IMG/VR virus record: IMGVR_UViG_3300047400_000324
Span: 11,757 to 75,756 of that record
DNA length: 64,000 nucleotides
DNA from: a virus
Taxonomy: Duplodnaviria; Caudoviricetes
Strand: one strand, 5' to 3'
This document shows, piece after piece, positions 4,412 to 46,816 of this stretch (position 1 is the stretch's first letter; each line of letters begins with the position of its first letter). The translations under genes were made by a program, and so were the position numbers. The notes beneath the pieces were generated by a model. The model did no database searches. It was not told where the DNA came from and saw only the letters and a program-made list of their open reading frames with translations.

Positions 4412-4419
4412 TATTTATA
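4412..4419 (-). promoter_or_regulatory. T4-type late promoter TATAAATA upstream of gene 32
   Basis: Exact TATAAATA on the minus strand; the cognate gp55 sigma factor is in the window. Confidence 0.75.
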
Positions 4420-4430
4420 ATGAGATTGAA

Positions 4431-4523
4431 TGGTGGGAGTGGTAAGAGTCGAACTTACAATGTTTACCATATAGGACGCGATTTACAGTCGCGGGATGCA
4501 CACGCCATAGCATCAACACTCCC
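4431..4523 (-). tRNA. tRNA-Tyr (GUA)
   Basis: Acceptor GGGAGTG/CACTCCC-A-CCA, anticodon arm CGCGA-CTGTAAA-TCGCG, long variable region, T loop TTCGACT. Confidence 0.9.
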
Positions 4524-11300: not shown

Positions 11301-11915
11301 TTATTGAATCTCATTCACTTTTGTATAAGTAGCATTTATACTAGTATATCTACCATATTCAGAAATAATATCAGAGCGTATGAATCCATATTTTGAAAAA
11401 ATATCGTTCCACCAAGTTTCTTCTTTCAATGTTACATGATAATTTTCATCAGGAAATGTTGCTATACCAACAATAAAATGACCATTCATATTGAGATGAT
11501 TGTTTACATTTATAAACAATTGATGCAAATCTTTTTCATATATATGTTCTAGAACATCGAACGCCGAAATTGCATCGAATTTTATTATTTGTTCAGAATC
11601 ATCTACAATTTTAAATGGTTTAGTTATATCTGCCGTAAAAAGATTATGGGGAATATTATTCCATTCTCCAGTTTTATTCTTAAATCCATAATCGCTACCA
11701 TCTATGCCAATTGCAAAAATATTATTTTTTATAAATTGCGATACAAATCCACCACCGGCACAACCCAAATCCAAATATTTCATGTTTGGGCCCAATTTAC
11801 GAATCAAATTTCTAACATATAAACCGTTTTTTGTATTATCTTGTTTAGTTCCCTTTGGATTTGTATGATCATAGCTTTCACATGCTATTGGAAAATCTGT
11901 CAATAATTTATGCAT
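11301..11915 (-). CDS. Class I SAM-dependent methyltransferase
   Basis: YLDLGCAGGGFV motif I; FDVLEHI. Confidence 0.85.
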   Translation of the reverse strand: MHKLLTDFPIACESYDHTNPKGTKQDNTKNGLYVRNLIRKLGPNMKYLDLGCAGGGFVSQFIKNNIFAIGIDGSDYGFKNKTGEWNNIPHNLFTADITKPFKIVDDSEQIIKFDAISAFDVLEHIYEKDLHQLFINVNNHLNMNGHFIVGIATFPDENYHVTLKEETWWNDIFSKYGFIRSDIISEYGRYTSINATYTKVNEIQ

Positions 11916-26007: not shown

Positions 26008-27861
26008 TTATTTATAATTTTTACGCCATTCATTCAATATATCGTGTGTAAGTAAAGAAATAGTTTCATTTACTTGTTTTTTGGGTTTAGGTTGTTGTCC
26101 TGTTCTAACATCATTATAAAGTTCTTCTGCATGTTCTGGTTTGATATTTGGAGACAATCCTTGACGAAATTTATTGAAATTTCCATTTTTTGCATGTTCT
26201 CTCATTTTAGATGCTGACATACCAGAAACACCTTCTGCATCTGGATCTCTATGACCAGCAGATACAACATTGATTTGTTTGAAGTTGAATTCTTTTCCTG
26301 GTCCATTATATCTATCTAATAATCTTTTGTATTCATCGACTCTATCCGAACCAGCAACCATAGTAACGTGTGTAACACCTTGTTTATGCAATTCCTTTAA
26401 ATGATGCATAAAAGTTGGATTTTCCCTCGTTGCTACACTTATATTTGTATTTGGAAACATTCTTTGTGCATGTTTCAATTTTTGTTCTGGCGATAAAGGA
26501 TTTTTATCTGAATCTTGTGTTCTTGAAAGAACAATAGAATGATTTGCGCCATTCAATCTTGCCAATTCTTTTACTTTATCGACTAAAGCACCATGACCAA
26601 CAGTTGGTGGATTCATTCTACCAAATGCAAATACATGATGCTTTTCTTCTTCGTTTATAGGTGCAATTTCAGATTTATCTGTTTCACCACGACCTCTATT
26701 GTTTGCAAAATTATTTCTTGAAAATTCTGCTCTATCGACCAATTTAGTAGGTCTTCCATTGCGTATTGCAACAAATCCCTCTGGTTTTACAGATTTTCCA
26801 CCCATAGTATGTTCAAATTCAGTTGGATTTCCTAAAGAATTTACGAGAACATCTTTTGCTTTTTGTATATGATGATGCAAATCGAATGCATGACCAAATT
26901 GTTCTTGATTGCCTTCTACATCATTTATAAAATTTCCATAATGTTCTATTTTTCTCTGTTTGGCTGAAGGTGTTTTTACTTTGCTTGCTTCATTGTCTCT
27001 TTTTTGTTTTAGAAATTTTACATATTCTTTTGGATTTGGTGTTGTTCCATCTCTGACGGTTTGATTTATGTATTGTTTCATGTGTTCGGCATGATTGCCT
27101 AATTTTTCCATAGTTTCTGGATGTATTTTTTGATAAGATTCTAAAGCATTTTTCTTATGCAATGCAAATTTACTTTGTGCAGGTTTGGTATAATTGAATG
27201 AATGACCAGAATTTATTTCTGGGTTTACTAAATTTACATCTGGGTGTTGTTTGAATTTGCTGTGATCTACATCGAATCCAGCTTTCATATCTTCAAACTT
27301 TTTACCTTTATATTTTGTATGAACTACAAATCCAATTTGTGAATTAGCAATTCTTTTTCCCATACCAGAATTTTTATGGGCACCATACGTAATAGTATTT
27401 GGAGTAAATTTATACTTATCTCCATCTTTTGTAACGTCGGGTTTTTCATAAAGAAAATCGCCCTGATAAACACCACCTTCATTGGGCATTGTTTTTGGTA
27501 AATGTTTAAGGGCAGCTTTTAATTTTGCCGCTAGCCCAGGAGCATGACCATGATTTTTGTCTATATCTTCTTCTGTATAATTTATTTTTGGATTTTTATT
27601 AAATGCAGATTTAGATGCTACAAAAAATTTACCAGTTTCTGGATGTTTGCCAAATACAACGCTTGGACTACCATCGTATTTTACTGTAATCTTAGATTTT
27701 GATTTTTTGCCTGACAATAAATTATGAGCATCTTCCAATGTAGATGCCGCATGTCCTACACCTTCATCCCCACCATGTATTATATGATCTTCTGCATGTT
27801 CTAAATGCTGAAGTTTATCGACATCCAAGGATTCGGCTAAAAAAGAATAAAAGTTTAACAT
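26008..27861 (-). CDS. Fusion of an ATP-dependent ligase-like N-domain and a HIGH-family nucleotidyltransferase C-domain
   Basis: N-domain VKYDG, QGD, EGFV, KLV; C-domain FGRMNPPTVGH, VAGSDRV, MSASKMR. Confidence 0.7.
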   Translation of the reverse strand: MLNFYSFLAESLDVDKLQHLEHAEDHIIHGGDEGVGHAASTLEDAHNLLSGKKSKSKITVKYDGSPSVVFGKHPETGKFFVASKSAFNKNPKINYTEEDIDKNHGHAPGLAAKLKAALKHLPKTMPNEGGVYQGDFLYEKPDVTKDGDKYKFTPNTITYGAHKNSGMGKRIANSQIGFVVHTKYKGKKFEDMKAGFDVDHSKFKQHPDVNLVNPEINSGHSFNYTKPAQSKFALHKKNALESYQKIHPETMEKLGNHAEHMKQYINQTVRDGTTPNPKEYVKFLKQKRDNEASKVKTPSAKQRKIEHYGNFINDVEGNQEQFGHAFDLHHHIQKAKDVLVNSLGNPTEFEHTMGGKSVKPEGFVAIRNGRPTKLVDRAEFSRNNFANNRGRGETDKSEIAPINEEEKHHVFAFGRMNPPTVGHGALVDKVKELARLNGANHSIVLSRTQDSDKNPLSPEQKLKHAQRMFPNTNISVATRENPTFMHHLKELHKQGVTHVTMVAGSDRVDEYKRLLDRYNGPGKEFNFKQINVVSAGHRDPDAEGVSGMSASKMREHAKNGNFNKFRQGLSPNIKPEHAEELYNDVRTGQQPKPKKQVNETISLLTHDILNEWRKNYK

Positions 27862-28097
27862 TTATACATCTCTATGAAGTTTATATTTCTTATATATTTA
27901 TTTTTTTCTGTTGATATCAAAACTTCTTTTATTATAGCGTCTATATTATCTTTCCAATAATTCAAAAATTTATGAACTTTTGGTATTTCTGGTAAAATGT
28001 CTTCCGTTTGCCATATAAATTCCTGAACAAGACTATAATGTGGAATATAATATAATATATCTATTGTTATCAAATAATTTTTTTTGATAATAAACAA
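27855..28097 (-). CDS. usg: Usg-family protein
   Basis: LIT..ILYY.P...LVQEFIWQ..D..PE.P...KFL.YW...I matches the alphaproteobacterial Usg pattern. Confidence 0.7.
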   Translation of the reverse strand: MFIIKKNYLITIDILYYIPHYSLVQEFIWQTEDILPEIPKVHKFLNYWKDNIDAIIKEVLISTEKNKYIRNINFIEMYKC

Positions 28098-29316: not shown

Positions 29317-29943
29317 TCAATGCCTTGTTGTTACTACTATTGTTTTTCTGGTATATGGATTATGTTTAACTAGATGCGAATACAATTTCACATCGGGATG
29401 TTCCAATTTCAATTTAGCAAATTCTTTATGGTTACCTTCATCGTCATCATAAAGATGCACCTCTTTCAATTTATCTCGTTTAATTAAATCCGATAAAACT
29501 CTTCTTTTTCGATCTCCAGTAGATGTGCCTTCTACATTTCCAGCCCTTCTCAAATGTGTTTTATCTATATCTATACCATATCTTTTTAAATGATGTTTGA
29601 CTGCCAGTTTATCGTCTAAATCCGATCTAGCTGTAAGTATTTCTGTTCTATTTCCTCTTTGGCGAAGTTTATTCAATCTATTTATCATCGAACGAATTGG
29701 AGTTCCGGATTTACGCAATACTTTTGCAGATTTAAATTCACCAAAATCATATTTGTGACCTAAAGGCAATTTATGTTTATTGAATTCCTGTGTGGTTAAA
29801 CTTCTAACTCTATTACCGTTGCTATCTATAACGTGAATTTTAATTTTATGAGGATCGTGGTGTATCAATGTATCATCTAAATCGAAGAAAAAAGCTTTAT
29901 TTCGTATACCCTCAGTTATAAATTCTTTGAAAGAAATCATCAA
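29317..29943 (-). CDS. HAD-superfamily phosphatase
   Basis: FDLDDTL motif I, ILTAR motif II, K, LYDDD motif IV; N-terminal FKEFITE. Confidence 0.8.
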   Translation of the reverse strand: MMISFKEFITEGIRNKAFFFDLDDTLIHHDPHKIKIHVIDSNGNRVRSLTTQEFNKHKLPLGHKYDFGEFKSAKVLRKSGTPIRSMINRLNKLRQRGNRTEILTARSDLDDKLAVKHHLKRYGIDIDKTHLRRAGNVEGTSTGDRKRRVLSDLIKRDKLKEVHLYDDDEGNHKEFAKLKLEHPDVKLYSHLVKHNPYTRKTIVVTTRH

Positions 29944-30032: not shown

Positions 30033-30611
30033 ATGATTGATATTTATAATTCATCAGATTACAGAAAAATTTTCATGAAAACATATGGTTCTATACCTAA
30101 AGACAAGGACGGTAGATCATATGAAATTCATCATATAGATGGAAATAATTCAAATAATTCTCCAGAAAATTTGAAAGCTGTTTCTATAGAAGAACATTAT
30201 TATATTCATTTGTCTCAAGGTGATTATGGCGCTTGTTTATTAATATCAAGTAGAATGACTACAACACCAGAAGAAAAGAGCAATTTGGCTAGATCTCATG
30301 TCATTAAACAACTTGAAGAAAATAGACATCCATGGAAAACAGACTCATATCGTGAATCTCAAAGACTAAGAGCTTTATCAGAAAATAATCCATTTCTTGG
30401 AGGTGAAATTCAAAGAAAAAGTAGTAGAAAACGTGTAAGGGAAGGCACACATCATCTTTTAGGCGATAAAACAAATTTTAATATGATTAAAGAAGGTAAG
30501 CATCCATCTCAAAAAATATGGACATGCGAACATTGTGATATTATCGGTAAAGGAACAACTAATTATATTAGATGGCATGGTAATAATTGCAAAAAATTAA
30601 TAAAAAAATAA
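30033..30611 (+). CDS. Free-standing HNH homing endonuclease
   Basis: YEIHHIDGNNSNNSPENL..VSIEEH...H; C-terminal CEHC...WHGNNC; antisense to its neighbours. Confidence 0.9.
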   Translation: MIDIYNSSDYRKIFMKTYGSIPKDKDGRSYEIHHIDGNNSNNSPENLKAVSIEEHYYIHLSQGDYGACLLISSRMTTTPEEKSNLARSHVIKQLEENRHPWKTDSYRESQRLRALSENNPFLGGEIQRKSSRKRVREGTHHLLGDKTNFNMIKEGKHPSQKIWTCEHCDIIGKGTTNYIRWHGNNCKKLIKK

Positions 30612-30636
30612 GTGTCTGGAGTTTCCTCCAGACACT
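30602..30636 (-). terminator. Intrinsic terminator
   Basis: 11-bp stem AGTGTCTGGAG/CTCCAGACACT with GAAA loop, then TATTTTTTT on the minus strand. Confidence 0.85.
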
Positions 30637-30745
30637 CGATAAATTTGCAGCAATGTCGAGCGGAACCCCACCGTTATTCTCAACTATTCCTCAGATTGAT
30701 CTGCTTTGCCACTGCGTCCTAGAAACGCTAATGCTGCTTGAGATT
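30612..30745 (-). ncRNA. Candidate structured small RNA
   Basis: Bounded by TATAAATA (30747-54) and the terminator; several complementary segments; no credible minus-strand ORF. Confidence 0.5.
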
Positions 30746-30765
30746 CTATTTATATTTTTAAGATT

Positions 30766-30969
30766 TTAGAAATAAGAATTTTTAGGTGGATTTAGAAAAA
30801 AACTTGGAGTCCATCCATCAAATCCAGATCCATTATTCAACGATGTCTTTAAAATTTGTGCATCCCATTCATCCTCGCATTGCATTATATTTTGTTCAGT
30901 ACGACTTTCAAAAATTTCATAGATATCGTTATCGTCCACATTTCGTTTAATCATATAATTCATTTTCAT
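30766..30969 (-). CDS. Conserved T4-like small protein
   Basis: LNNGSGFDGWTPSFF motif; located downstream of gene 41. Confidence 0.7.
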   Translation of the reverse strand: MKMNYMIKRNVDDNDIYEIFESRTEQNIMQCEDEWDAQILKTSLNNGSGFDGWTPSFFLNPPKNSYF

Positions 30970-30975
30970 TTTCTC

Positions 30976-32178
30976 CTATGCAAATCCTTCAAATTTCTTA
31001 GAAAATTTAGACCTATTTTGAAAAAATTCATTATCTCGTTGACCATATTCTGTTTTATCCATAATTGGAATGTCGTCCTGTATATTCTCCTGTTCTGTTT
31101 GATCTACATCGTATAATTTCATTTTCGATCTATCGATACCGATAACAAATCGGCGATTTTTAGATAAATCGCTGTATCTATTTTTAAGTTGTTTTACCAT
31201 AATTTGATTGAACGATTCTAACTGTTCATTGCTAATAAGAGCAAACATCAAATCGGCAGTCGCAGGTAATCCGAAACTTTCCGAAACATCTGTCAAAACG
31301 ACATCGGACGACGCATACCCACTTCTTGTTGTTTGTGTAGCTGTAACTATAGGAAGATCGTGTTCAACAGCTAAACCACGAAATTCTTCCGCAATAGCCT
31401 TTACATAAGTATAACTATTTACCGACGCGGTATATTTTACTCGGCTAGAAGCACAAATATTGAGATAATCGATATAAATGATATCTGGAATAAAATTCTT
31501 TTTCAATTTCAATTCATTCAATAAATGTCTGAAATTTGCTGCACCAGCAGTAGACGTTGGATATTCTTTGATAATAAGCTTACCAACAGTTTTCTTTTTT
31601 ACCCTATCGATTTTTTTCATGAAAGAATCTTTTGGAACGGTTTCAATTTCATCCAAAGACATATCCAATAGATTTGCATCGATACGTTCTGCAATTCTTT
31701 CTTCAGCCATTTCCATAGTAATATAAAGAACATTTTTACCATCAAGCAAATTGCTAGCGGCAAAATGACACATCGCAAGACTTTTCCCAACACCGGTATT
31801 ATGGCTTGAAATTCCATTAGTATAATATCTATGATTTTCATGTTCTACATTAATATCTACGATAGGAATTATATTGCCGGTATAACGAACAGCTCCCCTT
31901 TCAAATCCATTTTTTGTTAAAAAATTTGCATATTCAATTTTAGATAATTGTAGCGCGCTTATCCATCCATTATCAGTTTCAAATAAATGTTCTGCATTGC
32001 ATAATACAGATTCACTATTATTTTCCAACTGAAGGCTGTATTCTTCATAAATTCCCTTATCGATAAAGAAATTTACTCCTACCCATCCATCGGGAGAATC
32101 TACTTCAATTTCATAATTTTCTTCTAACATGGTTTTTATTTTACTGATAGGGATTTCAATTTCAGTCCAAATTTTCAT
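30976..32178 (-). CDS. 41: gp41 helicase C-terminal part fused to a 127-aa C-intein
   Basis: SD AGGAG before MKIWTE (32178). Intein blocks CNAEHLF and VDINVEHENHRYYTNGISSHN, then TGVGKS (rest of Walker A), YITMEMAEE, IYIDYLNI, ATQTTR, SESFGLPATAD. Confidence 0.92.
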   Translation of the reverse strand: MKIWTEIEIPISKIKTMLEENYEIEVDSPDGWVGVNFFIDKGIYEEYSLQLENNSESVLCNAEHLFETDNGWISALQLSKIEYANFLTKNGFERGAVRYTGNIIPIVDINVEHENHRYYTNGISSHNTGVGKSLAMCHFAASNLLDGKNVLYITMEMAEERIAERIDANLLDMSLDEIETVPKDSFMKKIDRVKKKTVGKLIIKEYPTSTAGAANFRHLLNELKLKKNFIPDIIYIDYLNICASSRVKYTASVNSYTYVKAIAEEFRGLAVEHDLPIVTATQTTRSGYASSDVVLTDVSESFGLPATADLMFALISNEQLESFNQIMVKQLKNRYSDLSKNRRFVIGIDRSKMKLYDVDQTEQENIQDDIPIMDKTEYGQRDNEFFQNRSKFSKKFEGFA

Positions 32179-32192
32179 TAAAAAATTTCTCC

Positions 32193-32265
32193 TATAAATA
32201 ATATTGTAGATCGCGATGCTACCAACATCCATCTACTCTAACGTCTGAAAAGGAGACATCAGCAA
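32193..32265 (+). promoter_or_regulatory. Late promoter plus structured leader of HNH gene 2
   Basis: TATAAATA 32193-200; GTAGAT-CGC-GATG(CTACCAA)CATC-C-ATCTAC-TCTA; GTCT/AGAC hairpin overlapping GGAG. Confidence 0.65.
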
Positions 32266-32901
32266 ATGTATTTACGCATTTATAATAATCTATGTTCATC
32301 AAATTGTCAACGAAAAGAATTGTGGTTGCCAGGTTCTGGTATTCATAGACATCATATATTACCAAAACATATGGGCGGATTGGATGAAGATAATAATTAT
32401 ACATATCTATATCCACGCGAACATCAAATAGCACATTTTTTATTATGGAAAATATATAAAAATCCAAATGATCTTAGATCAATGCATATGCTTGGTGCAA
32501 AATTAACTATTTCACAGAGAAAAATTGTAGGCATTTGGTGTAGAGACAACAAAATAGGAATTCATGGTTCTTCCTCTGAAAATAGAAAACAGTGGGCTTT
32601 AAAAGGATTAGAAACACAAAAAGAATCAAATAATAAAAAAACATTTTATTATTGGTCTACAGAAACTGGCAGAAAAGAACGATGTGCTTTGGGGGGAAAA
32701 TCTGGTTCTAAAACACAAATAAAAAATAAAATTGGTATATTCGATTCTAATAAAAGAACTGAATATGCTAAACTTGGCGGACAATCATTGAAGGGAATGA
32801 TTTGCGTAACCAATGGTATTCATAGAACTAGAATTAAACCTCATTTATTAGATGAATATGTGTCAAATGGTTATCGTTTAGGATTTACTCTTTTTTCCTA
32901 A
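32266..32901 (+). CDS. Free-standing HNH homing endonuclease between the split gene 41 halves
   Basis: HRHHILPKHMGGLDEDNNYTYLYPREHQIAH.LLWK. Confidence 0.9.
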   Translation: MYLRIYNNLCSSNCQRKELWLPGSGIHRHHILPKHMGGLDEDNNYTYLYPREHQIAHFLLWKIYKNPNDLRSMHMLGAKLTISQRKIVGIWCRDNKIGIHGSSSENRKQWALKGLETQKESNNKKTFYYWSTETGRKERCALGGKSGSKTQIKNKIGIFDSNKRTEYAKLGGQSLKGMICVTNGIHRTRIKPHLLDEYVSNGYRLGFTLFS

Positions 32902-33520
32902 ATCTTATTCTAACTTTTGTATCTGGATGAACACATCCTGCCAATATAACATTCAATGTCTTTCTAGAAAGCCCGCCTTTAGTGATAAGATTCATGTATT
33001 CCAGATTGAAAGGCATTTTTGCTTCTTTACGATGATAAAAATCGTAACGAGTTTCAGCGTCTTCCAAAAAACTATGACCAATATTAGAATCGAAACTTAC
33101 AGCCAGAGCATCGGATAAAATCTGTGGTATTGCGCCTTTATCATATTTGCTATTTTTATTATCCAAAATTTGAATAGAATCCATAATAGCATTATAAACG
33201 GCTTTTTCTTGACAAAATTTTTCTGTTTTTTCTACAAGCCAATCTACTTCTGTTTTAGGATCATAAGAGAGTTGATCTATGATATCTTTGCACATATCAT
33301 GAATTGGTTGACTTATACCAGTTTTTGAATTCATTTCAACTTCAATCGCTTCCTTTGATGGAAAGCGATTGAATTTGTTTACATAATTTTCAATCAATTC
33401 AAAAATAATTTTGTCGGAAATATCATGAAAATATTCCGATTTTAGAAAAGGTATTACTTTGCGTGCATAATCGTCACGATTTATAATATTACCAAAAATT
33501 ACTTGTTCAAAAGACGCCAT
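32885..33520 (-). CDS. 41: gp41 helicase N-terminal part fused to a 16-aa N-intein
   Basis: gp41 N-terminus (RKVIPFLKSEYF, EKFCQEKAVYNAI, VSFDSNIGH); ends NVILAG-CVHPDTKVRIRFRKKE*. Confidence 0.92.
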   Translation of the reverse strand: MASFEQVIFGNIINRDDYARKVIPFLKSEYFHDISDKIIFELIENYVNKFNRFPSKEAIEVEMNSKTGISQPIHDMCKDIIDQLSYDPKTEVDWLVEKTEKFCQEKAVYNAIMDSIQILDNKNSKYDKGAIPQILSDALAVSFDSNIGHSFLEDAETRYDFYHRKEAKMPFNLEYMNLITKGGLSRKTLNVILAGCVHPDTKVRIRFRKKE

Positions 33521-46523: not shown

Positions 46524-46600
46524 TGGAGAACCGGGTGAGATTTGAACTCACATAAAACAGGATTTGCAATCCTGCGCCTAAGCCATTCGACCACCGGTCC
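46524..46600 (-). tRNA. tRNA-Cys (GCA)
   Basis: GGACCGG/CCGGTTC-U73-CCA; CAGGA-TTGCAAA-TCCTG. Confidence 0.92.
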
Positions 46601-46609
46601 ATTTTTTAT

Positions 46610-46816
46610 TTATACAACGTCATAAAAATAATACAAATCGAATAAGCTTCCATCCTCTCGAATGGATCGCATGCGTTTGTTCGGATAAGACCTTTGAAGA
46701 TCCCGAACGATCCGATTTGTAACAGATGGATTCTGATTTACACCATTGGTAATGGTGGTAACATGAACCCAGCCGGAACTATTGTCCAGATATTCGATTT
46801 TTAGATCGTCTTCCAT
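46610..46816 (-). CDS. Hypothetical protein
   Basis: ORF downstream of a TTGACA promoter, with SD AAAGG. Confidence 0.55.
   Translation of the reverse strand: MEDDLKIEYLDNSSGWVHVTTITNGVNQNPSVTNRIVRDLQRSYPNKRMRSIREDGSLFDLYYFYDVV

Follow-up and report, generated by a model that had tools for sequence, protein, structure and literature searches.

A conserved structured RNA gene with a predicted late promoter and terminator downstream of gp41 in T4-like aquatic phages

The new analysis concerns a 64,000-nucleotide stretch of viral DNA (hereafter the window), which covers positions 11,757 to 75,756 of the 75.8-kb IMG/VR viral contig IMGVR_UViG_3300047400_000324 (CheckV completeness 46%), and indicates that its minus strand carries, at 30602-30754, a gene for a structured non-coding RNA (ncRNA). 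Specifically, the data favor a model in which this element is an independent gene for a trans-acting ncRNA of about 130-140 nucleotides (nt), which would be transcribed late in infection from its own promoter and ended by its own intrinsic terminator. We put the probability of this reading at roughly 70%, with expression, transcript ends, action in trans and the partner predicted from sequence. The initial annotation of this stretch had proposed a discrete ncRNA gene at these positions, and a family of viral relatives bears the proposal out: a late-promoter box stands upstream in all 74 distinct members that have upstream sequence, a strong hairpin with a U-tract follows downstream in 72 of 73, the helices covary strongly, and the family-wide count of G-U cells is 62, against 6 A-C cells.

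Read on the minus strand, the unit in the window opens with a T4-type late-promoter box, TATAAATA (30754-30747), an octamer that can be read directly in the sequence and that has just 19 occurrences on both strands of the 64-kb window (128 kb). Late transcripts of phage T4 begin about 6 nt downstream of the late promoter box; transcription would thus start at about 30741, and the RNA would therefore begin at the foot of helix P1. The conserved core (30739-30645), a GC-enriched segment of 95 nt found by the two covariance models R1 and R2, folds into a nested four-helix junction. Helix P1 joins GCAGCA to UGCUGC (30737-30732 with 30652-30647), P2 joins GCGU to ACGC (30728-30725 with 30717-30714), P3 joins CAGA to UCUG (30703-30700 with 30695-30692), and P4 joins GUUGAG to CUCGAC (30684-30679 with 30660-30655), with an A-rich 5' bulge after the 5' strand of P4. 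The junction strands GUGGCA and GGAAUAG lie at 30712-30707 and 30690-30684, and the P5 hairpin, CGG-UGGGGUU-CCG (30673-30661), includes the invariant 11-mer GGUGGGGUUCC (30662-30672).

The unit closes with the intrinsic terminator (30637-30602 including the U-tract), a perfect stem of 12 base pairs (bp), GAGUGUCUGGAG-GAAA-CUCCAGACACUU (30637-30610), followed by A-U7, in a region that stands back-to-back with the stop codon of a converging HNH gene. The GAAA-loop terminator had been recognized in the initial annotation, as had the GC-rich composition of the element against an AT-rich background, which amounts to a G+C fraction of 0.41-0.47 in the RNA region vs about 0.30 on either flank. The minimum-free-energy fold of the window RNA has an energy of -47.6 kcal/mol, with a z of -3.8 vs dinucleotide shuffles. 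The element is single-copy in the genome, and its core has neither internal nor tandem repeats.

Homologs were gathered by two routes. With gp41, the replicative helicase gene upstream of the element, as anchor, 80 related viral loci were fetched, and blastn and nhmmer detected the stretch downstream of gp41 in 6 of these. In addition, a strict pattern, GGAAYAG-N8-15-GGTGGGGTTCC, was scanned over viral contigs, at least 119 of which matched the pattern alone. The covariance model R1, built from three sequences, was run on both locus sets and gave full-length matches in about 80 loci; the second model, R2, realigned 86 matches, 75 of them distinct, and the pair statistics rest on this R2 alignment. 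Altogether, about 85 homologs are found in IMG/VR viral contigs, and covarying homologs do occur downstream of gp41, the place where the initial annotation had suggested looking. Phage loci score 55-90 bits with R2, vs at most 27 bits for chance pattern matches in bacterial genomes, and the window copy itself scores 95.4 bits with R1 and 77.5 bits with R2 (E of about 1e-19 to 1e-20).

The fold is supported by strong covariation. Standard pairs fill 96.2% of the cells in the 75 distinct sequences, a percentage that is inflated by the fitting of the alignments to the covariance model; shuffles reach 64%, and sliding the 3' partners by 1-3 columns brings the value down to 34-50%. Both-side changes are present at 19 of the 19 modeled pairs, and the covariation score reaches 0.847, compared with 0.236 for shuffles and 0.06-0.14 for slid registers. 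By helix, the paired fraction is 98% in P1, 86% in P2, 99.8% in P4 and 99.6% in P5, with compensatory changes at all six positions of P4, while P3 is a short variable hairpin between two conserved junction strands that has at least 3 bp in 68 of 74 minimum-free-energy folds (mean z -1.3). The same exchanges can be read by hand among the raw homologs: P1 occurs as GCAGCA/UGCUGC (the window), GUAAAUGUG/CACAUUUGC, AUAUG/CAUAU and GUGCGUG/CACGCAU; P4 as GUUGAG/CUCGAC (the window), GUCGGG/CCCGAC, GCUGAG/CUCAGC, GUCUGG/CCAGAC and GGCAGG/CCUGCU; and the closing pair of P5 alternates between C-G and A-U. The slid controls and these hand-read compensatory changes speak against model-fit bias as the source of the signal. 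The excess of G-U over A-C cells, in turn, argues that the selected molecule is an RNA from the promoter-bearing strand and not the DNA.

The family consensus consists, in its 5' half, of P1 (6-9 bp), UAU or GUA, the P2 hairpin, A(A)GN-GGCA-MG, the P3 hairpin and NN-GGAAUAG, and, in its 3' half, of the P4 5' strand (6 bp), an A-rich bulge of 3-5 nt, N-GG-UGGGGUU-CC-N', the P4 3' strand, 0-3 nt and the P1 3' strand. GGCA, GGAAUAG and GGUGGGGUUCC, the latter forming the hairpin NGG-UGGGGUU-CCN, are essentially invariant, while every helix drifts in sequence; the invariant 11-nt hairpin is kept across phages whose helicases share only about 65-72% identity. The nucleotides that come first after the promoter are paired with those immediately ahead of the terminator in 52 of 71 minimum-free-energy folds.

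Measured against this consensus, the pairings drawn in the initial annotation stand in part. GCAGCA/TGCTGC (P1), GCGT/ACGC (P2), CAGA/UCUG (P3) and CGG/CCG (P5) belong to the fold, with P1, P2 and P5 covarying, and P4 had been overlooked. The possible pseudoknot is rejected: the proposed crossing pairings TCTCAA/TTGAGA and CTCGA/TCGAG exist in the window sequence only, with mean longest runs in the family of 3.1 (vs 3.3 shuffled) and 4.1 (vs 3.9 shuffled), respectively, and TTGAGA and CTCGAC pair with each other as P4. A translated small peptide, which the initial annotation had named as the contrary outcome, finds no counterpart in a conserved open reading frame or start codon across the family, and the helices covary at all codon positions. 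A 28-amino-acid frame that opens with TTG (30683-30597) was considered as a small open reading frame and dismissed, as it is not conserved and other members have no start codon there.

The promoter-terminator architecture is a family trait as well. The upstream box reads TATAAATA in 52 members and NTAAATA in 22, and the distance from its end to the first P1 pair is 7-17 nt in nearly all of them (mode 11; outliers 19, 27 and 29 nt). The terminator begins a median of 7 nt after P1. Its loop is GAAA in 29 of 70 loci and UUCG in 14 of 70, others also occurring; a role of the GAAA loop as a conserved tertiary contact was rejected on these counts, and the terminator is of a generic stable type. From box to terminator, we infer a transcript of about 125-155 nt. 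Directly past the terminator, 41 members have a second TATAAATA, followed by the Shine-Dalgarno sequence and ATG of the next gene.

Further evidence comes from a divergent subgroup (L016, L030, L045, L054 and L077), in which the whole RNA unit is inverted relative to gp41 and to c1, the small gene that usually lies between gp41 and the RNA. The inverted units keep their own GTATAAATA and share their terminator tail-to-tail with c1, on which they converge. A unit that inverts together with its own promoter and terminator should therefore be neither a mere 3' untranslated region (3'-UTR) nor the leader of a downstream gene. In inverted copies (L045:1655-1700, L054:6348-6390), a TTGACA is also seen about 15-17 nt before a TATAAA, upstream of the late box, and these copies might in addition be transcribed early by the host sigma-70 polymerase. 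Two other copies of TATAAATA in the window lie at tRNA genes, one at 46607-46614 (minus strand), 7 nt upstream of a tRNA cluster that starts at 46600, and one at 4412-4419 (minus strand), just downstream of an isolated tRNA-Tyr gene (4431-4523); their positions suggest late-promoter transcription around these genes.

The distribution of the RNA separates it from its neighbors. Among the 80 gp41-anchored loci, c1 is present in 32, of which 15 carry the RNA and 17 do not, and two loci, L016 and L060 (the latter a weak match), have an RNA match and no detected c1. In a quick gp41 tree, the RNA-positive loci all fall in one clade and are patchy within it, and well-supported branches force at least four gains or losses: the RNA is present in L010 and absent in its sisters L013 and L019, and present in L045 and absent in L047. 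L013 (4985-5075) and L019 (4985-5070) have a TATAAATA overlapping the c1 stop codon, then about 25 nt and a GAAA-loop terminator homologous to that of L010, with the core absent, which we interpret as natural 'empty' alleles. Given the inversion in one subgroup and this patchy presence among close relatives, the RNA gene behaves as an independent, dispensable transcription unit.

Cultured phages have so far yielded no copy. BLAST of three family members against cultured phages (INPHARED) returned nothing, as did tblastn of two c1 proteins against cultured phages, and a covariance-model search of the whole genomes of HTVC008M, Melnitz, S-E7, P-RSM4, S-CREM1, S-PM2 and one marine single-cell virus gave no match; in HTVC008M, Melnitz and four cyanophages, which are cultured relatives, gp41 is followed by MazG or other genes. 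Bacterial and archaeal genomes, 185,579 in all (596 Gb), returned at least 120 matches to the pattern, which is about the chance expectation, and all of these score at most 27 bits with R2 bar one phage-like contig. Six of the bacterial loci were checked as possible tRNA-Tyr genes, and none contains a tRNA. The phage-like contig (L226; JBMOJS010000386.1, 1756 bp), from a metagenome-assembled genome of Pseudobdellovibrionaceae, has a full-score copy of the RNA (78.6 bits) and is most likely phage DNA that was mis-binned or co-assembled.

Several other explanations have to be weighed against an independent RNA gene. One is a cis-acting riboswitch or attenuator, in which a ligand would bind the junction as aptamer, and the terminator would serve as the expression platform that governs read-through to the downstream gene. 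Invariant purine-rich junction strands amid variable helices do resemble an aptamer, a likeness that is compatible with this explanation and not specific to it, the terminator follows closely on P1, and in the window CUCGA can pair with a UCGAG that overlaps the foot of the terminator. However, most loci provide the next gene with a TATAAATA and a Shine-Dalgarno sequence of its own directly past the terminator, the downstream genes belong to more than 10 unrelated clusters and do not form a coherent regulated set, and the RNAs of the inverted subgroup are directed into the 3' end of c1, where there is nothing to regulate. Complementarity between the P4 3' strand and the linker or terminator is 4.05 vs 3.90 when shuffled, with no conserved antiterminator, and there is no Rfam riboswitch match, all of which makes a riboswitch improbable.

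Equally small are the chances that the element is a stabilizer or processing site in the 3'-UTR of a gp41-c1 operon and not a separate gene. The RNA does lie directly after c1 in 57 of 70 loci, and the same terminator closes the c1 transcript in RNA-less relatives, but the late-promoter box stands at a near-fixed distance in every member, the unit is inverted in one subgroup, and about half of the c1 loci have no RNA gene.

A catalytic RNA of a new type, self-cleaving or other, would be no more probable than these two. Many small ribozymes come from phage and metagenome sequences, and the compact multi-helix junction, with its conserved nucleotides in the junction strands and one loop, is built as small ribozymes are. 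Against this stand the lack of a match, even a weak one, to any Rfam ribozyme family, which excludes the known classes, the single-copy occurrence without ties to repeats, retroelements or rolling-circle replicons, and a sequence that indicates no cleavage site.

Slightly further down the scale comes a tRNA-related mimic or tRNA-binding RNA. A text search found GGUGGGGUUCC to be identical to nucleotides 1-11 of E. coli tRNA-Tyr, the matching 5' sequence of which is confirmed in PMC7695249; A-G-N-G-G-C-A resembles a D-loop, and the four helices have a cloverleaf-like outline. Yet the element is called neither by ARAGORN nor by the Rfam tRNA model RF00005, even at E<=10, and the 11-mer folds into its own hairpin, the closing pair of which covaries, and has no complementary CCCCACC strand. 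The phage's own tRNA-Tyr starts with GGGAGUG and differs in its acceptor stem. The identity came to light post hoc, and we treat it as a coincidence that may serve as a lead and not as evidence. Finally, a fold that arose by chance in a spacer richer in GC, or an element acting as DNA (an origin or recombination site, for example), has in its favor only the place in a variable intergenic slot where homing endonucleases insert; the conserved promoter and terminator speak against it, and the covariation and the asymmetry of G-U and A-C cells effectively refute it.

Some points also weigh directly against an independent, trans-acting RNA gene. Besides the inflation of the paired percentage mentioned above, the promoter, the transcript ends and the stability of the RNA are extrapolations from the DNA letters, and a riboswitch or ribozyme would likewise show a conserved junction with a terminator behind it. 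The c1 loci that lack the RNA indicate that c1 is not an obligate partner, and sites in the phage genome that are complementary to the invariant loop, as expected of mRNA targets, show no enrichment.

With an independent RNA gene as the preferred reading, the phage would transcribe the RNA late in infection from its T4-type late promoter and stop at its intrinsic terminator. P1, at or beside the predicted 5' end, and the terminator hairpin at the 3' end would protect both ends, so that the RNA molecule should be stable. GGCA, GGAAUAG and the 7-nt loop UGGGGUU on its invariant GG:CC stem could then form a sequence-specific surface that would bind a conserved protein or RNA partner in trans, which may be a host factor or a core phage factor; a conserved molecular partner is implied by the persistence of the 11-nt hairpin across helicases of about 65% identity. 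For a dispensable, patchy gene in a hypervariable slot, an accessory role in host interaction is most likely. Within this reading, we tentatively suggest that the RNA might sequester a host protein or defense sensor, as decoy or sponge. Somewhat more speculative still is the idea that it represents a class of late structured RNA new to T4-like phages, the hairpin and junction of which would neutralize a host factor or defense sensor without a host-RNA template, or serve in catalysis or ligand binding, and which aquatic phages might trade as an RNA 'moron'.

The initial annotation recognized no family for this RNA, and indeed there is no Rfam match. A search of the whole window with Rfam 15 (4227 families) at the gathering threshold returned tRNAs only, the RNA region at E<=10 gave only terminator-driven matches of 14-18 bits vs thresholds of 42-80, 11 diverse family members have no Rfam match in common, and ARAGORN called no tRNA or transfer-messenger RNA at the RNA region.

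In its layout, the gene resembles the 'morons' of lambdoid phages, which are independent promoter-gene-terminator cassettes between conserved genes. Like these, it appears to have its own promoter and terminator, lies between conserved genes, is present or absent in close relatives and seems to leave 'empty' sites; it differs in that the cargo is a structured RNA and that the promoter is of the T4 late type, unlike the sigma-70 promoters of morons that are active in lysogens. Phage decoy RNAs, such as the pseudo-ToxI of PhiTE and the RNA anti-CRISPRs, are small accessory RNAs that have their own expression signals and bind a host defense protein. Action by binding such a protein would be shared with the working model proposed here, by analogy, whereas the known decoys copy a host RNA (ToxI or CRISPR repeats) and no host template turned up for this element, bacterial genomes having given chance matches only. 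Similarly, the type III antitoxin ToxI consists of tandem repeats beside an endoribonuclease toxin, in contrast to a single copy without repeats whose neighbors are gp41, c1 and variable genes. Abundant structured phage RNAs that are neither tRNA nor mRNA are known in the form of T4 stable RNAs C and D (species 1 and 2) and phi29 pRNA. RNAs C and D are processed from a tRNA operon, while the RNA gene described here lies 11 kb away from the tRNA cluster and has its own late promoter, and it has no Rfam match to pRNA.

No paper describing this RNA family was found in the searchable literature. Comparative genomics of phages and metagenomes has uncovered orphan structured ncRNA motifs before (Weinberg et al. 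2010, PMC2864571; Weinberg et al. 2017, PMC5737381), and this family is of the same kind, having a covarying fold, no assigned function and an occurrence mainly in uncultured aquatic viral sequences. Fremin, Bhatt and Kyrpides (2023, PMC10690425) list about 8,500 candidate 'csRNAs' from IMG/VR, among the unnamed ones of which the present family may be; as far as the main text of that paper goes, a gp41-adjacent or late-promoter RNA is not discussed. The element would thus introduce a new RNA family, as its first member to be described; the general kind (the stand-alone phage small RNA) is known, and the function is possibly new.

The surroundings of the RNA gene are those of a T4-like aquatic myovirus. 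The C-terminal part of the gp41 replicative helicase (intein C-part and helicase), which served as synteny anchor, lies upstream at 30976-32232 on the minus strand, and c1, the constant upstream neighbor, follows at 30766-30969 (minus strand) and encodes a protein of 67 amino acids with the motif LNxG(G/S)GFDGWTPxFF. Across the RNA loci, gp41 is upstream in 60 of 70, and c1 is the immediate upstream neighbor in all but 13. On the other side, a free-standing HNH homing-endonuclease gene (30033-30611, plus strand; Pfam HNH_3 2.9e-10, phrog_12324 8.8e-37) precedes a HAD/Pnk-phosphatase-like gene (29317-29943, minus strand), the next conserved gene beyond it, after which comes a gene for a 402-amino-acid protein. 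The gene after the RNA varies among loci and may be HAD-like, a DUF6267-cytidylyltransferase or a member of several other families. The HAD/Pnk-phosphatase-like and DUF6267-cytidylyltransferase genes do not track the RNA and reflect the ordinary synteny of the phage group, as in HTVC008M.

Convergence of the RNA on the HNH gene, to which the initial annotation had drawn attention, holds for the window and not as a shared trait: of about 70 loci, just 2 contain an HNH gene that converges on the RNA terminator. In the window, the HNH gene is inserted between this terminator and the HAD-like gene, and relatives have HAD-like or other genes straight after the terminator; the HNH gene is not part of the RNA unit, and the convergence is incidental. 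In the two phages concerned, two unrelated HNH genes occupy the same spot (30033-30611, plus strand, in the window and L138:11486-11986), both facing the RNA terminator. It may be that the RNA gene, or this terminator, serves as a target or hot-spot for homing.

The c1 family comprises 1057 clusters at 50% identity in metagenomes, with proteins of about 55-110 amino acids that share the invariant tail LNxGGGFDGWTPxF; its place in one clade of aquatic T4-like phages is always directly after gp41. It has no match in Pfam or PHROG and no relative in the PDB, and its counterparts in the ESM Atlas are viral hypothetical proteins only. A structure model of c1 shows a beta3-alpha arrangement (predicted local distance difference test score, pLDDT, 82) for which Foldseek PDB and VIA wide gave no informative fold match (best Z 5.3), and a PDB profile match to the designed propeller Tako8 was judged spurious.

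The surroundings also offer some separate observations. The gp41 helicase is fractured inside Walker A (30976-33520, minus strand): the N-gene (32885-33520) ends in ...ILAG followed by a 16-amino-acid intein N-fragment, CVHPDTKVRIRFRKKE, the C-gene opens with about 140 amino acids of intein ending in SSHN, followed by TGVGKS, and an inverted HNH gene (32266-32901, plus strand) lies between the two halves. The gp41 intein is atypically split, with a very short N-part. The DUF6267 proteins downstream in relatives (L128:1140-3125, L141:4503-6461, L136:7026-8252) have a K-Y-D-G motif, which is reminiscent of motif I of nucleotidyltransferases or ligases, and are often fused to a cytidylyltransferase-like domain. 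Lastly, an open reading frame of 80 amino acids (27855-28097, minus strand) has a match to the Usg-like family PF06233 (1e-16), a domain that is unusual in phages.

Hardly anything is known of the ncRNAs in the uncultured T4-like phages that abound in oceans and lakes, and the new results give one such family a fold, conserved motifs and a predicted promoter and terminator. The covariance model can be used to annotate the RNA locus in viral metagenomes, and the core of about 100 nt constitutes a concrete target for structure probing, for ribozyme and ligand screens and for the mining of metatranscriptomes. Furthermore, the RNA gene is dispensable and exchanged between close relatives, a distribution that is typical of the cargo with which phages interact with their hosts and counter host defense.

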